This document shows positions 7,966 through 18,954 of a stretch of 64,000 nt of DNA, piece after piece. The position numbers were made by a program, and so were the translations under genes. The stretch comes from Trichodelitschia bisporula. Taxonomy: Eukaryota. How positions within the stretch are numbered: position 1 is the first letter of the stretch; each line of letters opens with the position of its first letter. The notes below the pieces were generated by a model that ran no database searches, had not been told where the DNA came from, and worked only from the letters and a program-made list of their open reading frames with translations. Location of the stretch: contig ML996700.1 in the NCBI GenBank assembly GCA_010356995.1, positions 558,001-622,000 on the forward strand, in the 5' to 3' direction.

Positions 7966-8218
7966 CGGAGGTGAGCGGACTGGGACATTGTGGGCGGAGT
8001 ATGGGTCAATTTTGGAGGTCGGATTTAGCAGACAGCGGCGTCGGAGTGAGGTTCCACTGCATAGCAAATTCCATGGCCTTGCATCCACACACTCGTTTCA
8101 GCCTTGTTGCTAGCAGCTAGCTCCGGCCTCGCCCGCACCCTAAATTACCCCATTTTAGACTCCAACCCATCCAAACAAACCGCATCTGAACAACCCCCTC
8201 TCAAATTACCCCCCCCCA

Positions 8219-10579
8219 TCACACCTCCCGATACGCCCCATAATACCCCCCCGCCACANNNNNNNNNNNNNNNNNNNNNNNNNNNNNNNNNNNNNNNNNN
8301 NNNNNNNNNNNNNNNNNNNNNNNNNNNNNNNNNNNNNNNNNNNNNNNNNNNNNNNNNNNNNNNNNNNNNNNNNNNNNNNNNNNNNNNNNNNNNNNNNNNN
8401 NNNNNNNNNNNNNNNNNNNNNNNNNNNNNNNNNNNNNNNNNNNNNNNNNNNNNNNNNNNNNNNNNNNNNNNNNNNNNNNNNNNNNNNNNNNNNNNNNNNN
8501 NNNNNNNNNNNNNNNNNNNNNNNNNNNNNNNNNNNNNNNNNNNNNNNNNNNNNNNNNNNNNNNNNNNNNNNNNNNNNNNNNNNNNNNNNNNNNNNNNNNN
8601 NNNNNNNNNNNNNNNNNNNNNNNNNNNNNNNNNNNNNNNNNNNNNNNNNNNNNNNNNNNNNNNNNNNNNNNNNNNNNNNNNNNNNNNNNNNNNNNNNNNN
8701 NNNNNNNNNNNNNNNNNNNNNNNNNNNNNNNNNNNNNNNNNNNNNNNNNNNNNNNNNNNNNNNNNNNNNNNNNNNNNNNNNNNNNNNNNNNNNNNNNNNN
8801 NNNNNNNNNNNNNNNNNNNNNNNNNNNNNNNNNNNNNNNNNNNNNNNNNNNNNNNNNNNNNNNNNNNNNNNNNNNNNNNNNNNNNNNNNNNNNNNNNNNN
8901 NNNNNNNNNNNNNNNNNNNNNNNNNNNNNNNNNNNNNNNNNNNNNNNNNNNNNNNNNNNNNNNNNNNNNNNNNNNNNNNNNNNNNNNNNNNNNNNNNNAG
9001 GGGATATAAGGAGGGGAGGGGATAAGGGGAGGGGGACGAACCGGCTGAGCTCAACTTCCGCACCGCCACCTTCTCCATCTTTAAACACTCCGGCAACGCA
9101 GCATACCAATCCCTCAACCGTAACTGAATCGGCTTCGCCCGCTCCAGCACCCACCGCCCGCCCTCCCTCGCGCGGGCACGCCACTCCTCCTCCGCGCGCA
9201 GGGTGTAAAACTCGCTCAACACCACAGCGAGTATCTCCGTCAACCGTATCATCTCAGAGAACAACACGCGCCCCTTCTCCACCTCCGCACTCCCCTCCTC
9301 ATCATCCTCGTCCGCCGCGCTCTCCGGAAAGTCAGACGCGGCCACGGGCTTGACGAGCCAGTCCGCGGGCGTAATGTGCGAAGGGCGGCCATGCACCAGC
9401 GCACCCCATTTGTCCTGCATGAACAGCGCCCACGCAAGCCGTTTCCGCAACCCCTTCTCCCACGCCGGAATCCGCCACCGGGAGCAGTCCAAATGCAGTC
9501 CCAAGTCCTGCCCTAGCCCGACCAACTTCGTCGTCAACGCCCACTCATCCCCCTCCGGCCGCTGGAGCAACAATAGCCCCGCCTGAATCGTGCTCAGTTT
9601 CGGCCTAGCAACGACATACCCCATCGTCCTAAGCGCAACCCTTTCCAAAGCGCGGACATCCGGTTTTGGGCGAGCGGCCAGGGCAGCGCTGTACGCCCAC
9701 CAGTTCAGCGCGAGGATGTACACGGCGGCCAGCAGCGGCGGCGCAAACTCCCTGTGACTGCGCGCGTATTTCTCCAAGAAAACCCTCTTGTGCAAGATCG
9801 GAAAACTGGGGTGTACGATCCGGAAATACAACCTGACGAGCGCAGGCCCATGACCCCCGACCAAGCGCTCCACGGCATCCGCATCCCCCGCCTCGTCGCC
9901 CCGCCTCAGCGTCCCGGTGTCAGGGAGAAGGACAAAAGCCGCCGCGCCACTGACCCGCCGCAGCGAAGCCGCATGCAGCGAGGCCGTCCCGTCGGGGGAC
10001 AGCGGCAACTCATCCCCCCGCGTAGAAAGCTGCCCCACCAGCGCGCCCTCAAACTCCGAACTCCCGCCCACAAACCTGCTATGTCGATGATTCTGCAACC
10101 CCAGCGTGCGCTTCAACAAACTCGGCCCCTTGAGCGTCGCATAATCCGCCGGCACCTCCCTCTCCTCAACCGGCTCCGGACTCCCCCCTACCGCCTGGGC
10201 GCCCGACGCATCCTCCGTCGACGGCAGCGGGGCAGACAGAGGCGTGGACAGTTTACGGCGCTTTTGCCGCGGAAGCGGGTTCTCGTCGAAGCTGCACACC
10301 TGCCGGTGAAACCGACACAGCACGCACGCGGGGTCGTTGTCGCTGAATTCGCAGCGCGATTTGCGCTTGCGGCATGCGTCGCAGGGGCGGCGGGGTTTGG
10401 TCTTCTGCAAGGAAGGGGGGCCCGTCGGCACGGCAGCAGTCGGGAGCGCGGAACCGGGCGCGGGGGCCGCGGGGGGAAGACCGCTGGAATCCTATAGCTA
10501 ACGTCAGAAACACTCGGGAAGGGGAAGGGAGCGGGGGAGAGGGGCAACCCACGCTGTCCTCAGTCAAGACAGAGCTCAT
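8219..10579 (-). CDS. DAL81: Zn(II)2Cys6 transcription factor, Dal81/TamA-like; part of the 3' region lies in N gap 8259-8998
   Basis: RPCDACRKRKSRC...CVLCRFHRQVCSF cluster and fungal TF middle region (YFRIVHPSFPILHK, RKRLAWALFMQDKW). Short first exon 10579-10553 and intron 10492-10552. The stop at 8219 is inferred across the gap. Confidence 0.8.
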
Positions 10580-11151: not shown

Positions 11152-12932
11152 TCAGACAATTTCCTTCTCCACCGTCACAGCCGGGTCCTTGAGATCGACC
11201 TCCTGGCCCTCCGAGCTCGGGGTCGTGATCTCGCCCTTCTGCGGCGGGTACACGGCCTCGTCGATGAGGCTGACGGTCTGCGGGAAGAAGTGGTTGATGG
11301 CGATGTAGGTCACGACCGTGGTGACGAAGCCGTAGATCCAGGCGAAAGCGTAGAGCTTCCACGCGCCGCCTACGTCCAGGTCGTTGCTGATCGACTTCGC
11401 GAACCCGGGCATCAGCGGCGCGACGCCGACGCCGAAGGCGGCCCAGGCGCGCCAGTTCACGCCGTGGTTGTACCAGTAAATGCCGCGGTCAGTGTACAGC
11501 TCGTGCAGGTTGAGCTTGCGCTTCTTGATCTGTGGCGCATTAGTGCGGCTGGAATGACGTGGAGGGGGAAACGTACGATGTAGTAGTCCGCAACGATGCA
11601 CCCAGCCATGGGGCCCATGAGGCACGAGTAGCCCGACAGGAAGGCGAGCAGACCCGCGGCGTTCTTGATGATATTCCACGGGGTAACCACGACGCAAAAG
11701 AGCGAGATGAACAACGTGCCGCGGAAGATGTTGATGTACTTGGGCGCCAGACCCGTGACATCGTTGGAGAACGGGTACGACCCAGCAGCCACCTGGTTGC
11801 CAATCGTAGCCAGCATGAAGCTCAGCGAGACGAAGAACTTGGCGGCGCGGGAGTCGAACTTGGCAATCACGGCCGGCATGTACCACTGGAAGGAGCCCCA
11901 GAGGTAGCTGTGGGCGCTGGTGACGAAGATGGGCGTCAGGGCGCCGAGCGTGCCGATGATGGGCAGCGCGAGGAACTGGTGCCCCCCGGCGAGGCGGTTC
12001 TTGCTGAAGCGCCCGAAATCAGGCATGTTGACCGCCATGGAGGAGAAGAGCCCGATGATCACGTTGAGCCCGGTCAGTGCCGAGTAGGCGGTGTTCATGT
12101 ACGTCGACGTGATCTTCATGTGGCCGGTGACGAGCGGGCCGCCGCCCTTGGTGACAATCACGGCCCAAAGGAAGAGCGCAAAAAAGGTCGGCGGCACGAC
12201 GACCGCCTTGACCCAGAACAGGATGCGCAGCTTCTCAATGGGCATGAGACACAGGATCGTCTGCAGGATCCAGTACAGCATGAAGGTGAGCAGTTCGGCC
12301 GACGTAATGCCCGCGTTGTCGGGCAGGTGGTTCGGGAAGTGGATGAAGCTAGGCCAGATGGCCTCGATCATGCGCTGGAGGAAGTTGCCTGCCTGCACGC
12401 CTGTGGACCATTAGCCTCACCCTTTACAAGATCGAAGCCAAAGCACTTACACAAAATCGCCGTCCACATCAGCGCAACGAAGGCACGGATGCAAATCGCG
12501 GGAAACGACCCGTACATGCCAAACGTACTCCGCACCACGACGGGAAAGGGGATGGCGTAGGTCGCGCCGATCTTGCCCGTCGCCGTGATGACGAAGGAGC
12601 AGATGAGGAAGCCGAAGAACACGATGGGGATGGTCTCACGCGCCGTGAAGCCCAGCGACATGACCGTCGACACGGTGCTGGCCAGCGGCGGCGCCAACAT
12701 GTCCGAGCACCAGTAGGCCCAGTAGTCGACACCGCCCCAAGTGCGCTTCTCTGGCGGGATGGGGTCGAGATCTGGTCCGTTAGCATCGCGGCCTGCTCTC
12801 CCTAGAGTCAGAGTCCATACCTGGGTTCGACCATCGCGGGTTGTCGGCATACATGCCCACCTTAAAGGGGACATGGAGATGCATCTGCGGGCCAATCTTG
12901 GCCTTGAGGCGACGAGGCGAGAGGAACGACAT
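11152..12932 (-). CDS. NCS1 family (Fur/Dal4-type) nucleobase/allantoin permease, 3 introns
   Basis: Spliced RWSNPDLDPIPPEKRTW, IPFPVVVRSTFGMYG, NMPDFGRF, PKYINIFRG, TPWN and YWYNHGVNWRA motifs typical of NCS1. Confidence 0.92.
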
Positions 12933-14072: not shown

Positions 14073-14605
14073 GCTTCAAGTCCACATCAATAGGTACCCC
14101 GAGATAACACCGTCCCAGCTTCAGCCTGAGCTACTTCACTGGGAGAACCACGGCAAACCTCACCCGAGCTCGTATGGCCAACGGAACTTCGTTATGGCCG
14201 CTTATTGCACTCACACTTGTCAGAACCACAACACATGGCATTCTAGAAATCCCAGCTCCCGGCCCCCACTAGCGCATGCATGCAAAGCTTCAGCCCAACG
14301 CCCACAGCGTGGGGTCTGGGGGTCTAGTTCTAGCCCCGGGAAGCACCCCGGCAACCCGATAAGGCGGCCCCGACCCCGCACAAGCGGCCGGCCGACGGCG
14401 CCCCGCCGGCCACCGTCGCCGCGTGCCCCGGTCCCGCCGCCCGCCCTCGCCATTATGCGGGGCACGTAAATGGTCGTGCAGCCTAGCAGCCCATTGGGGG
14501 CAGAGCGGATCGCACTTTCTCTTTCTCCTCTCTCGTTGCTCTCTCGTCGCTCCTTCGCAGCATCTACCGGCCAAAGAGCGCCCAGGAGACAGCACAGCAC
14601 TCACA

Positions 14606-16888
14606 ATGGCGACCTCACAGCTCCCCTCGCTCCTCAGCATCGATGCGAAGCCGTACGCCTTTGCCTTTCCGCCGCAGCATACCGCGCTACTCGTCATCGA
14701 TATGCAGCGCGATTTCCTGCTGGCAGGCGGATTCGGCGCAATCCAGGGCGGCAACCTGGAAGCCGTGCAAGCGTCCATCGCGCCGACGAAGAAGCTGCTT
14801 GAGGTGTGCCGGCGCGCCGGGTTGACGGTGTTCCACACCCGCGAGGGCCACAAGCCCGATATGTCTGACTGTCCCTCGTCGAAGCTAGTCCGCCAGGCGG
14901 AGGCACCGGAGAACACGCAGCACACGCTGGTTATCGGGGATAAGGGACCGATGGGCCGGCTGCTGGTGCGCGGTGAGTACGGACACGATATTGTGGATGA
15001 GTTGGCGCCGCTGCCGGGAGAGGTGGTCATCGATAAGCCTGGGAAGGGGTCGTTCTGGAATACAACGATCCTGCATAAGCTTAAGGCTCGCGCGATTACG
15101 CATCTGATAGTTGCGGGCGTGACGACTGAGTGCTGCTTTGCCACGACTATTCGCGAGGCTAATGACCGCGGGTTTGAGTGCTGTGAGTTTTTGCGTGTGC
15201 TCAGAGGGGGTGGGTGTTAATGGTAGCAGGCGGCATCGAGGAGGCGACCGCGGGGTACAATGCCGAGTTCAAGTGCTCGAGCCTGGAGATGCTGTACTGG
15301 TCGCAAGGGCTTTTCGGCTTCGTCTCGTCACTTCAGCCGCTCGTTGACACCCTCGAGCCATATACCACCGCTCCCACGTCGCTCACCTCCCCCCCAATCA
15401 CCCCACCGGCCTGGGACGGCAACGTGACCATCCCCAGCCTACAAGCCGCCTACCGGGCCGGCCTCTCCCCCGTCACCGTCGCAGAAGGCGTGCTCAAATA
15501 CATCGAGCAGTACGAAACTGAAAACCCCGGCGTGTGGATCCACCGCGTGCCCAAGGACGTGGTTCTCGAGGCCGCCAAAGCGCTCGCCGCGAAGTACCCG
15601 GATAAATCCGCCCTGCCCCCGCTCTTCGGCGTCCCGTTCAACATCAAAGACAGCCTTGACGTCGCCGGCCTGCCAACGACGACCGCATGCCCGCCCCTGA
15701 CGCACATCGCCTCAACCAGCTCCCCCGTGTACGACAGCGTAATCGCCCAAGGCGCCCTCTTCATCGGCAAAACGAACCTGGACCAACTCGCCACGGGCCT
15801 AACCGGCTGCCGGTCGCCCTACGGGCGGCCGCACTCTGTCTTCCACAACGACTACATTTCCGGCGGCTCGAGCAGCGGGAACTGCGTCAGCGTCGGCGCC
15901 TCACTCGTCTCCTTCTCCATCGCCACCGACACAGCGGGGAGCGGCCGCGTGCCCTCCGGCTTCAACGGCGTGGTCGGGTACAAGCCGACGCGCGGCCTGC
16001 TCAGCACCGTCGGACTCGTCCCCGCCTGCCTATCGCTCGACTGCATCGCCATCATCTCGCGCACCGTCGCCGACGCCCGGACCGTCTGGCAAGTCGCTGA
16101 AGCCTACGACCCGCGCGACCGCTACGCCAAGAACCCACTCGGCTTCGAGCGGCACGTCAACGCCACCGGGCCAGGAGCGCGGAAATTCACCTTCGGGATC
16201 CCCCCCCCAGAGGCGCTCTCCGTGTGCGCCCCCGTCTACCGCGCCATGTTCCACAAAGCGATCGCGCGACTCCAGGCAATGGGCGGCGAGCTGAGGCCTA
16301 TAGACTGGAGTCCCTTTGAGAAGGCAGGGAGGCTGTTGTACGACGGGACGTTTGTGAGCGAGCGCCTTGCGAGTTTGCCGGATGATTGGCTGGAGAAGAA
16401 TCGCGGGCACTTGCACCCTGTGATTCGCGAGCTGTTCGAGGCGGTGGAGGCGAGGGGGAGCACGGCGGTGCAGGCGTACCGCGATTTACAGGCTAAGGCG
16501 CTGTATACGCGGCAGGCGGAGCTGGTGCTTGGGTACGGGGACGGGGGCGTGGATGTTGTGGTCGTGCCTACGGCGCCGACGCATTGGACTGTTGAGGAGG
16601 TGTTGGAGGATCCGATTAGGAAGAATAGTGCGCTGGGGGTGAGTTTTTTCTGATGTGTGTTACGGTGGGGGACTGGCTAACGAGTGGCAGGAGTTCACGC
16701 ATTTTGGAAACGTGCTCGATTTGTGCTGCGTTGCGGTGCCGGCGGGGGCGTATGCGGAGGGGGAGCTTAGGCCGGGGGCTGGGGACGCGCCGCTGCCGTT
16801 TAGCGTTACGTTCCTTGGGGGGAGTCGGATGGATGCTGAGACGTTGGAGATTGCGAGGAGGTTTGAGCAGGGCCTTTTGAATAGGTGA
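14606..16888 (+). CDS. Fusion of an isochorismatase-family cysteine hydrolase (biuret/triuret-hydrolase-like) and an allophanate-hydrolase-type amidase; introns 15183-15229 and 16639-16690
   Basis: N-domain: VIDMQRDF, HTREGH, GPMGRLLVRGE, IDKPGKGSF, GVTTECC, REANDRGFEC. C-domain: IKDSLDVAGLPTT, GKTNLDQ, RSPYG, GGSSSG, DTAGSGRVP, LLYDGTFVSER. Both introns join in frame. Confidence 0.9.
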
Positions 16889-17116
16889 GGGATATGTGTG
16901 AGGTTGGGGCCGCGGTTGGGTTTGGGCGGTGATCTGTTGAAGGTTTGGGAACTGGACGGGTCACGGTTGGGTTGGGTTGCATAACTCGTACATAGCATTT
17001 TGACGAATCTAGGCCGTGAATTAACACTGGTATTGCGGGTGTCTTTTGGGGTATTTCGGGATTCCATTTTGCCGGAGAGTCCGACTTACGGTCGTCAGCC
17101 ACGCTTCGTACTCTCA

Positions 17117-17842
17117 TCATACCCCCCACACCCCCCCCCCCTCCCCAATCGGCCCCAGCGCAGCACCAAAATCCCCTGCGCCAAACCTCGGCGCCTCGCC
17201 CCTCATCGGCGCATTCGGACTCAGTTTCTTCCGTCTCCGCTCAAGGCCTGCTTTCGACGGGAAGGTCGGGAACATAGCCGTACTCTTCGGGCGCGGATCC
17301 TCAGTGAAGTACGGATGTGTTAGGACCTGTGTGGCGCTTGGGCGGCCTGCCGGGTTAAGTTCGAGAAGGGAGGAGAGCAGGTCAACGCCTGCGGTGGTGA
17401 GGAGGGGGAATGCCGGGCGCAGCGAAGGCGGAGGCGGTGCGGTGGACGGTAAGCGCAGGGCGCGCGCGTTCGGCAATCGGCGTACGGACGGCCAAGTCGC
17501 TTCCGTAGGCGTGCCGCGGAGGGCAAATATCTAGCCCGTCAGCACCACTCCTTCCATCGGGAGCAACACACCTTCCCCACCTGATCCACCTCATTCTTCC
17601 CCTGCAGCAACGGCTCCTTGCCAAACAACTCCCCGAATATACACCCCAGGCTCCACATATCGATCGCGCTATCATAGACCGATGTCCCGAGGAGGAGTTC
17701 GGGCGCGCGGTACCAGAGGGTGACGACGAGTTGGGACATATTGGCGAGGGGGGGGGAGGAAAAGTGGCGTGCCATGCCGAAGTCGGCGAGTTTGGTTTGG
17801 CCGCGGTTGTTGAGGAGGATCTATGGGGGGGTTAGGTGGGAT

Positions 17843-17892
<50 letters not shown>

Positions 17893-18704
17893 GTGGGGGG
17901 TACGTTGGAAGGTTTGAGGTCGCGCTGGGGAGTGTTAGTGGTGGTACTTTTGGGGGTAAGGGGATGGGGGGAGGGGGACGTACGTGGAGAATCCAGTGAT
18001 CGTGGAGATACTCCACCGCCGAAGTAATTTGCAGCATCAGCGTCTTAATCTCACTCGGCAAAAACGGCTCCACCATATCCTCCTGCAGCGCGCGCAGATC
18101 ATGCTCCAAAAACTCCATCACCAGATACACACTAGCACAACAATCAGCCCCCCTTTCATCCCCAAATCTTCACAACTCACTCAAGTAACGTCGTCCCCAC
18201 AACCACCTCCTTCAAATCCACAATATGCGCGTGGCGGCACTCCTGCAGCGTTTGTATCTCCCTAAGCGCCATGTCGGGGAAGCCATCCCCTATCCGGCCC
18301 ATTTTTAGCTTCTTGAGGGCGACGATTGAGCCAGTGGATAGGTCTTTGACGCGGGAGACTGTGCCGTAGGTTCCTTCGTCGATGTGGTTTAGTTGTTCGA
18401 AGATGGAGACGCGGCGGCTGGGGGACCATGAAGGCGCGGTGAGGCGGAGGAGCGCCAGTGGTGCCTCTGGGGCGGGTTCCTCTGGGGCGGGTTCTTCGGA
18501 TAGGCGCCGTCGCTTAGTTGGCCGGTGATCCGTGGGTCTGTCGTCGGCTTGTAAGGCTTCTTGTTCGCGTTGTCGTTGCTGTGCAGCTGCTTCCTCGGCG
18601 GCCCGTCGTTCGCGCTCCGCTTTCGCACGCCGTTTTTCTTCTTTTTCACGTTTCCGAGCCTGCGCATCGGCGTCGTCGTCTGCCCAGCGGGATTTACCGG
18701 CCAT
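17117..18704 (-). CDS. cdk11: CDK11/PITSLRE-like Ser/Thr kinase, 4 introns, including a 21-nt micro-exon at 17904-17924
   Basis: [10 protein letters not shown]-terminus, [25 protein letters not shown], spliced [38 protein letters not shown]. Confidence 0.88.
17843..17891 (+). repeat. Poly-G homopolymer (about 49 nt) in a kinase intron
   Basis: Directly visible. Confidence 0.9.
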
Positions 18705-18954
18705 GATGTCGAGGATAAGGCGTTGATATAGTTCGGGGATGAGGCGTTGACGTCGGGGTGGTCGTGGTTGAGCTGTGGTTGAGCTCGGAGGTGCGGTGCG
18801 GAGGTCGCGGCGGCGCGGCGTCGCCTTGCGGCCAGAACTTTTTTTTTCGCGGGGAAGCAAGACGACCGGCTGGGCCTACGTCGGGCACTTCACAGCTACC
18901 TCACGGATACGACACGATATCAATGGCACATGAGACGACGTCCACGCGATGATT

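Follow-up and report, generated by a model that had tools for sequence, protein, structure and literature searches.

Biuret and triuret are impurities of urea fertilizer, and triuret is also a product of uric acid oxidation (PMC7948467). The enzymes described for these compounds belong to the isochorismatase-like cysteine hydrolase (IHL) family: TrtA of Herbaspirillum sp. BH-1 (6XIX/6XJE; PMC7948467), a free 24-kDa dimer, acts on triuret, and BiuH of Rhizobium leguminosarum (6AZO; NF050097) converts biuret to allophanate. Bacterial trtA clusters hold trtB, atzD, atzF, a GntR regulator and an ABC transporter (PMC7948467). AtzF and other bacterial allophanate hydrolases (AH; 4CP8, 4GYR/4GYS) have an amidase-signature fold with a Lys-cisSer-Ser triad. 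In fungi, the DUR1,2 fusion joins an AH to an allophanate-making enzyme, the biotin- and ATP-dependent urea carboxylase. To our knowledge, the breakdown of biuret and triuret is known only from bacteria, where separate enzymes carry it out. Herein, we describe a gene in a 64,000-nucleotide stretch of the Trichodelitschia bisporula genome (assembly GCA_010356995.1, contig ML996700.1, forward-strand positions 558,001 to 622,000; the window) that encodes an IHL domain and an AH amidase domain in one chain. Judged from its sequence, the protein has about an even chance of deaminating a small acyclic ureide of the biuret series twice in succession, as part of an inducible uptake-and-mineralization module.

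The gene occupies 14606-16888 of the plus strand, where three exons read from the sequence join into a 727-amino acid (aa) protein (Table 1). The joined product equals the database protein P0004 in every letter, and one source names that entry 'amidase signature enzyme [Trichodelitschia bisporula]'. Two transcript contigs bridge the three exons, one of 2380 nt from run X1 covering 14427-16905 and one of 2347 nt from run X2 covering 14515-16960. In both contigs, introns 1 and 2 are removed exactly at GT..AG, with 0 other letter differences. X1 and X2 come from one sample of one study, and their run type is RNA by guess only. A spliced form of the fused gene exists as a single molecule with ends resembling untranslated regions. 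A sequence-only reading of this DNA had placed a 47-nt intron between the two domains. Splicing at 15183-15229 is borne out by the contigs, but the intron falls inside the IHL domain. Exon 2 contains both the linker and the junction between the domains, which makes the fusion independent of intron 1 splicing. The same reading was right that an in-frame IHL-AH fusion sits on one mRNA, but it overlooked the second, 52-nt intron.

Prokaryote-style gene calls on fungal metagenome contigs give the two halves separately, as they would if two adjacent genes had been wrongly merged in our model. These split rows are best read as calls broken at intron 1, because the two halves share contigs (the longest contig is equal in 17 pairs). 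Within exon 2 alone, one frame runs from the end of the IHL domain through the linker into the amidase domain, and the X1 and X2 contigs span all three exons. We therefore give a merging artefact a negligible probability.

The IHL domain extends over about residues 9-235. Exon 1 alone belongs to Pfam PF00857 (Isochorismatase), scoring 111.9 bits where the gathering score is 27. When compared with Protein Data Bank (PDB) chains by HMMER, the N domain scored 227 bits to TrtA (6XIX, its top match, covering residues 9-228), 182 bits to BiuH (6AZO), 182 bits to Rhodococcus BiuH (6XJM) and 97 bits to RutB (8BKD). It also matched positions 3-220 of the 221 in the NCBIfam BiuH model NF050097. Pocket positions were read from the HMMER alignments to the TrtA and BiuH PDB chains and from an independent MAFFT alignment. 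The TrtA paper gives the catalytic triad as D24, K129 and C162, with substrate contacts from F29, E72 and K132 and from Q202 of the other subunit (PMC7948467). D32, K144 and C177 of the window protein align to this triad, and F37, E80 and K147 retain the contacts F29, E72 and K132.

The positions that separate TrtA from BiuH show a different picture. The consensus differences are F35/Y, N41/Y, A134/S, E160/D, Y187/T and I205 (PMC7948467). Q202 of TrtA, which lies about 2.7 Å further out than BiuH Q215, is held responsible for discriminating biuret from triuret, and N41 is its second-shell partner (PMC7948467). The window protein is TrtA-like at F43 (TrtA F35), E175 (E160) and Y202 (Y187), and BiuH-like at S149 (TrtA A134). 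It has G49, followed by N50, in place of N41 and S217, between W216 and Q218, in place of Q202; both are neither the TrtA nor the BiuH state. L220 replaces I205, and W216 replaces a TrtA Ala. Three of the seven TrtA consensus residues (F35, N41, A134, E160, Y187, Q202, I205) thus agree. Between the anchors LEML and G, the window protein reads YWSQGLF, TrtA reads TAQGGIV and BiuH reads KMQGGVF. The stretch is equally long in all three enzymes, so the Gln has shifted by one residue and an alignment gap does not account for it. The Asn that pairs with the Gln in closed TrtA is likewise shifted by one residue. The N domain also carries a 7-residue insertion at 97-103 relative to TrtA. An AlphaFold2 model of the fused protein (pTM 0.84, mean pLDDT 76.8) gives the pocket elements 35-49, 86-126, 200-209 and 216-220 pLDDT below 50, so the position of Q218 cannot be read from it.

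The second half of the protein resembles AH. Exon 2 matched Pfam PF01425 (Amidase) at 225 bits, and among PDB chains the C-terminal half matched the AtzF amidase domain (4CP8, 305 bits), Granulibacter AH (4GYR, 292 bits) and the Kluyveromyces lactis AH (210 bits). In the AlphaFold2 model, the best fold matches were AtzF 4CP8 and AH 4GYS (TM 0.87). The domain scored 458 bits to the AH model PRK08186, versus 133.1 bits to AtzE, a 1-carboxybiuret hydrolase whose cut-off is 461. Scores to the AH models TIGR02713 / PRK08186 stayed below the curated cut-offs (457.8 vs 487; 426.2 vs 511), and the two models were matched over positions 6-446 of 600 and 2-411 of 563 only. The triad K332, cis-S406 and S430 is present, as is the whole stretch S406-S408. 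Y563 and R571 stand in LLYDGTFVSER, the LLY....ER motif shared with bacterial AH, and presumably correspond to the Tyr and Arg that bind the carboxylate of allophanate. Neither exon 3 nor the whole protein matched the AH C-terminal domain PF21986 in Pfam. The protein stops at position 446 of the 600 in the AH model; the AH C-domain is therefore absent. Pfam assigns only PF00857 and PF01425 to the chain, with none of the urea carboxylase domains (biotin carboxylase, carboxyltransferase, biotin carboxyl carrier protein). A 50-kDa AtzF fragment without the C-domain retained amidase activity (PMC3944691), and according to a review the N and C domains of K. lactis AH catalyze sequential reactions (PMC5770610). 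By analogy with these enzymes, loss of the C-domain need not abolish allophanate hydrolysis. The sequence-only reading of both halves stands up well in these comparisons. It had described intact Asp-Lys-Cys and Lys-Ser-Ser sets, the LLY......ER Tyr and Arg and the missing C-domain, and it had recognized both the TrtA-like positions (GGF, TTE, AGY) and the departure of FGAIQGGN and YWSQGLFG from either enzyme.

Table 1. Positions of the fused gene, its parts and its conserved neighbors. Numbers refer to the window unless a locus (L) is given.
Feature	Position	Strand	Remarks
Exon 1	14606-15182	+	Residues 1-192 plus first base of codon 193; bulk of IHL domain
D32; K144; C177	14699-14701; 15035-15037; 15134-15136		In exon 1, which also holds K147 and E175
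Intron 1	15183-15229	+	47 nt, GTGAGT..CAG, phase 1; splits codon 193
Exon 2	15230-16638	+	IHL end, linker and bulk of AH amidase domain
IHL end in exon 2	to 15357 (residue ~235)	+	Includes Y202 and W216-S217-Q218 (15298-15306)
Linker	15358-15420 (residues ~236-256)	+	Pro/Thr-rich; within exon 2
K332; S406; S430	15646-15648; 15868-15870; 15940-15942		In exon 2
Y563; R571	16339-16341; 16363-16365		In exon 2
Intron 2	16639-16690	+	52 nt, GTGAGT..CTAAC..CAG, phase 0
Exon 3	16691-16888	+	Final 65 residues of amidase fold; TGA stop
Paired CCGNCGG	14392-14409	.	Spaced by 11 bp; 214 and 203 bp before the ATG; just upstream of the transcript contig 5' end (14427)
NCS1 permease (PF02133), Fur/allantoin-permease-like	about 11152-12932	-	Divergent, upstream; predicted model with at least 3 introns read by eye
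Zn2Cys6 factor (Zn_clus + Fungal_trans)	8206-10491	-	Beyond the permease; coordinates of the open frame
Paired CCGNCGG in related fungal loci	L050 9268-9285; L052 9750-9767; L053 5077-5094; L057 5479-5496; L068 787-804; L074 2060-2077		

Both Pfam domains occur in 58 of the 120 best exon 2 relatives listed, under generic names. This supports an earlier suspicion that similar fungal fusions may already be catalogued. The 58 fused proteins are 669-799 aa long with 67-77% overall identity and belong to Dothideomycetes, Lecanoromycetes and Geoglossum. Across their alignment, C177, W216, S217, G219, L220 and F221 are invariant in the IHL half, as are K332, S406-S408, S430, Y563 and R571 in the amidase half; Q218, G48 and G49 are at least 90% conserved. 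The remaining 62 exon 2 rows and all 120 listed exon 1 relatives of about 200 aa are mostly metagenomic. These short relatives (73-88% identity) had been considered as stand-alone enzymes and were rejected as such, being exon 1 gene calls on fungal contigs. Split pieces, for instance P0030/P0135 and P0113/P0141, carry the labels 'nicotinamidase-related amidase' and 'allophanate hydrolase'. We also compared 79 related metagenome loci, which are not independent of one another because many come from the same sampling campaigns. Among the 70 that cover the Gln-site motif, it reads xWS[QE]GLF in 66, HWAQGLF in 1 and CGQDGLF in 3.

A search of 1.84 billion representatives yielded 137 full-length IHL domains that could be classed by their motifs. 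The clade of the window protein holds 62 of them, with the set DFF QGGN EKK[SA] TECC Y xWSQGLF. Another 19 'TECC' domains have other residues at the Gln site, among them AYDGLF, YANGLF and WADGLF; 17 of these 19 belong to proteins of 323-743 aa that fall in the fused clade in a quick N-domain tree. TrtA-like domains (19) carry DFF LGND EKKA TEVC Y xAQGGIV, BiuH-like domains (16) carry DFY MGYD EKKS TDVC T xMQGGVF, and 21 others lack a shared motif set. The other fused classes have named members in Aspergillus, Clonostachys, Geopyxis, Sugiyamaella, Dipodascopsis and the basidiomycete Meredithblackwellia. In Aspergillus californicus and a Sugiyamaella/Dipodascopsis subclade, the amidase half lacks its Lys, Ser and Ser or is barely recognizable, and the IHL triad is retained (proteins with a degenerate amidase half: P0257, P0264, P0265, P0267, P0268, P0269, P0273, P0276 and P0277). 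The fusion is old and widespread in fungi, and it is annotated only generically.

Several unusual architectures were met in the same family. A 498-aa Chlamydomonas protein (P0246) has a BiuH-motif domain followed by a TrtA-motif domain. A 644-aa protein (P0251) has the AH C-terminal domain PF21986 ahead of two IHL domains, and the second of these has Gly in place of the catalytic Cys. In P0244 and P0245, the first domain has Lys where the catalytic Asp would stand and Gly where the Cys would. The 1389-aa P0399 from a member of Teratosphaeriaceae combines the fused hydrolase with a Fungal_trans domain, and is probably a merged model of two neighboring genes.

Both domain trees set the fused proteins apart. 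A careful tree was computed from 56 N domains, a random subsample that omitted six long-branch rows (P0342, P0316, P0357, P0254, P0296 and P0338). All 23 fused domains formed one clade (support 100/99, 100% of 200 bootstrap trees) on a long stem of 0.52, separate from TrtA. BiuH-motif rows formed a separate clade (98/92). The fused clade appears to lie among the TrtA-motif rows, but its split from the BiuH side received only 61/93. The 107-row quick N-domain tree agreed, with Shimodaira-Hasegawa approximate likelihood ratio values of 92 and 94, the latter for the split from the BiuH side. For the AH half, a quick tree of 53 domains, from which P0257 and P0267 were omitted as degenerate, placed 19 fused domains in one clade (100*), apart from 24 bacterial and 10 DUR1,2 domains. 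The DUR1,2 domains formed their own clade inside the bacterial AH domains, and they retain PF21986, unlike the fused rows. Their identity to the window AH domain is 36-42% only. The fused domains form their own clade in both trees, and both halves thus trace to a single old fusion whose origin is not DUR1,2. Within the AH tree, a basidiomycete sequence (P0398, Leucogyrophana) falls inside the ascomycete WSQ clade, which suggests either gene transfer or contamination.

The 80 closest bacterial loci, 51-58% identical to exon 1, hold the same activities in a different arrangement. Of the 79 loci that contain a full domain, 78 have a TrtA-motif gene. BiuH-motif paralogues occur in 32 of all 80 loci and AH genes in 28. 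None of the 80 loci has an open reading frame with both IHL and AH domains. The bacterial trtA-biuH-atzF clusters thus have these activities side by side, but as separate genes and with two IHL enzymes, not one. Because TrtA-type loci hold BiuH paralogues and AH genes, IHL and AH activities are already paired in bacteria, each with its own gene. The AH C-domain is missing in 8 of the 24 bacterial AH genes scored (L084 5948-7294, L100 5957-7291, L105 5878-7248, L106 6580-8010, L122 6616-8019, L149 6622-8010, L086 and L088). These short forms come mostly from Actinomycetota, and L088 belongs to an Acetobacteraceae genome. In L084, L100, L105, L106, L122 and L149, the short AH gene stands directly upstream of trtA or of a preceding biuH paralogue, and some of these genes overlap the one that follows by a few bases.

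The neighborhood of the fused gene is conserved in fungi. A divergent NCS1 permease and, beyond it, a Zn2Cys6 factor precede the gene (Table 1), where the bacterial clusters use an ABC transporter and a GntR regulator. An NCS1 orthologue of at least 45% identity lies divergently within 5 kb in 33 of the 41 related loci with at least 3.5 kb upstream. In the 8 other loci, a more distant NCS1 gene occupies the same place in 4 and an NCS1 gene lies downstream in 1. Of the 26 loci whose upstream flank reaches at least 7.5 kb, 19 have a Zn2Cys6 orthologue, which lies upstream in 16 and downstream in 3. No other gene of the window is syntenic in the 79 fungal loci. Beside the bacterial relatives, the search for an NCS1 permease gave one weak match (32 bits) in 80 loci. 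The best bacterial models for the permease are allantoin permeases, far under their cut-offs, and an Atlas search with it returned the generic NCS1 family only. In a bacterium, an acyclic biguanide has been shown to be carried by an NCS1 transporter (PMC13390362), so an acyclic substrate for this permease is not far-fetched.

The promoter shared by the permease and the fused gene is rich in CCGNCGG. We compared 43 shared promoters, including that of the window. The 32 non-redundant ones contain 52 sites, or 1.74/kb versus 0.28/kb in the rest of the loci, an enrichment of about six-fold. A pair of these sites with 11-bp spacing occurs once in the 64-kb window, whereas dinucleotide shuffles predict 0.04 (one pair is reached in 4 of 100 shuffles). 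Six of the 79 fungal loci have this pair at 224-357 bp upstream of the fused gene, and it is found in 2 of the 80 GC-rich bacterial loci. We regard the paired CCGNCGG as a candidate operator for the neighboring Zn2Cys6 factor.

These observations suggest how the module could operate. The substrate would be imported by the divergent Fur-type NCS1 permease, and the Zn2Cys6 factor probably induces the module via the paired CCGNCGG sites. In the IHL domain, D32-K144-C177 would attack a terminal carbamoyl amide of a biuret-series compound and release ammonia. Biuret would be the simplest substrate, with allophanate as the product, although a biuret/triuret generalist could also be envisaged. The amidase domain (K332, cis-S406 and S430, with Y563/R571 holding the carboxylate) would then hydrolyze allophanate to a product that decays to ammonia and CO2. 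Biotin, ATP, free urea and the AH C-domain would not be needed. A biuret-series substrate is put first because only biuret gives allophanate in one step, a product that suits the fused AH domain. From the sequence-only reading, we still infer a two-step, biotin-independent ureide amidohydrolase, possibly for a different substrate, and the conserved permease and regulator neighbors strengthen this inference.

Several points weigh against a biuret-series substrate handled in two coupled steps. The N domain scored 225.3 bits to NF050097, below the curated equivalog cut-off of 370; in controls, BiuH-motif sequences scored 411.6 and 419.2 bits and TrtA-motif sequences 267.4 and 285.1 bits. Against the BiuH consensus (Y, Y, S, D, T; MQGG), S149 alone agrees. 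The Y, Y, D, T and MQGG states are not found, and F43, G49, E175, Y202 and WSQG stand in their place. The nearest relatives of the N domain belong to the TrtA type, and TrtA itself performs about 10^4-fold worse on biuret (PMC7948467). Because the discriminating Gln is replaced by Ser with Gln one residue later, and its partner Asn is shifted too, the pocket may fit neither biuret nor triuret. In addition, IHL enzymes can switch substrate at high identity, as reported for two guanylurea hydrolases that share 44.8%. Nor are the two steps coupled throughout the family, because the amidase half has lost its catalytic residues in some fused lineages. In the urea amidolyase of K. lactis, allophanate is reported to move by diffusion, and a fusion is no proof of channelling. 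The missed BiuH cut-off, the nearness to TrtA, the second shell of its own and the shifts of function at high identity are the reasons why we weigh another ureide and a strict triuret hydrolase beside the biuret-series substrate.

With clearly less probability than the biuret-series proposal, the same two-domain logic may serve another natural substrate, which would make the fused clade a third specificity class beside BiuH and TrtA. Candidates would be formylurea/acetylurea, oxalurate, ureidomalonate, guanylurea-like compounds or another fungal/plant ureide, with the AH half taking a carboxylated product or a later allophanate. QGGN and xWSQGLF replace LGND/xAQGGIV of TrtA and MGYD/xMQGGVF of BiuH; they are kept in 66 of 70 metagenome loci and are invariant or nearly so in the 58 proteins. 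Sister fused clades differ at this very site (AYDGLF, YANGLF, WADGLF), the long stem (0.52, 100/99) points the same way, and a permease of Fur/allantoin type stands in place of the ABC transporters of bacterial trtA/biuH clusters. It is then possible, if doubtful, that the second shell (G49-N50, W216-S217-Q218) is tuned to such a ureide and that, with the permease and the factor, it belongs to an undescribed nitrogen-catabolic pathway of much of Dikarya. However, none of the first-shell contacts of TrtA and BiuH has been lost, the amidase keeps the AH Tyr/Arg and scores far above any other amidase model, allophanate arises in one step from biuret only, and no neighboring gene indicates a candidate compound. 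A strict triuret hydrolase is improbable by comparison. Carboxybiuret would decay to biuret, a separate biuret hydrolase would be needed, and the AH half would serve the end of the pathway. TrtA as the best PDB match, its states at F43, E175 and Y202, the TrtA motif of the closest bacterial relatives (78 of 79 loci) and a statement that trtA occurs in some fungi (PMC7948467) all agree with such a hydrolase. Four of the seven discriminating positions (G49, S149, S217 and L220) do not, and TrtA variants N41Y and Q202E kept under 10% activity (PMC7948467). Moreover, no related fungal locus among the 79 has a second IHL gene, an AH fusion makes little sense if the first product is not its substrate, and the placement with TrtA-motif sequences is weakly supported (61/93). 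Lastly, fungi use AH for urea via DUR1,2, and the amidase half might be the only part that matters, clearing allophanate from urea carboxylase with the IHL half as a structural or regulatory appendage. This is very unlikely, given that the IHL triad and contacts are conserved family-wide, even where the amidase half has decayed, and that the AH domain lies outside the DUR1,2 lineage (separate clades, 100*; 36-42% identity).

In the literature searched, with partial coverage, we found no description of the fusion, its pocket or its gene cluster; one study that mentions biuret hydrolase 21 times only docks ligands into bacterial BiuH (PMC10805520). The domains, their chemistry and their partnership are already known from bacteria, and the fused proteins are in databases under generic names. 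If the biuret-series proposal is true, many fungi (lichen-formers, dung, wood and leaf fungi and some yeasts) would own a compact, regulated module that needs a single permease for uptake and a single protein for full conversion to ammonia, without ATP or biotin. Fungi would then join in the turnover of biuret and triuret nitrogen by a so far unstudied route. The family would also be a natural experiment on how a Gln/Asn second shell sets chain-length specificity. Bacterial biuret hydrolase has already been used in plants (PMC7700744; PMC13155557), and the fused gene would offer a single-gene alternative.

On the downstream side, the neighbor at 17117-18875 (minus strand) is a gene for a CDK-like protein kinase in several pieces. 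Within it, a tract at about 17830-17910 reads as a long poly-Pro in one frame and as poly-Gly on the other strand.

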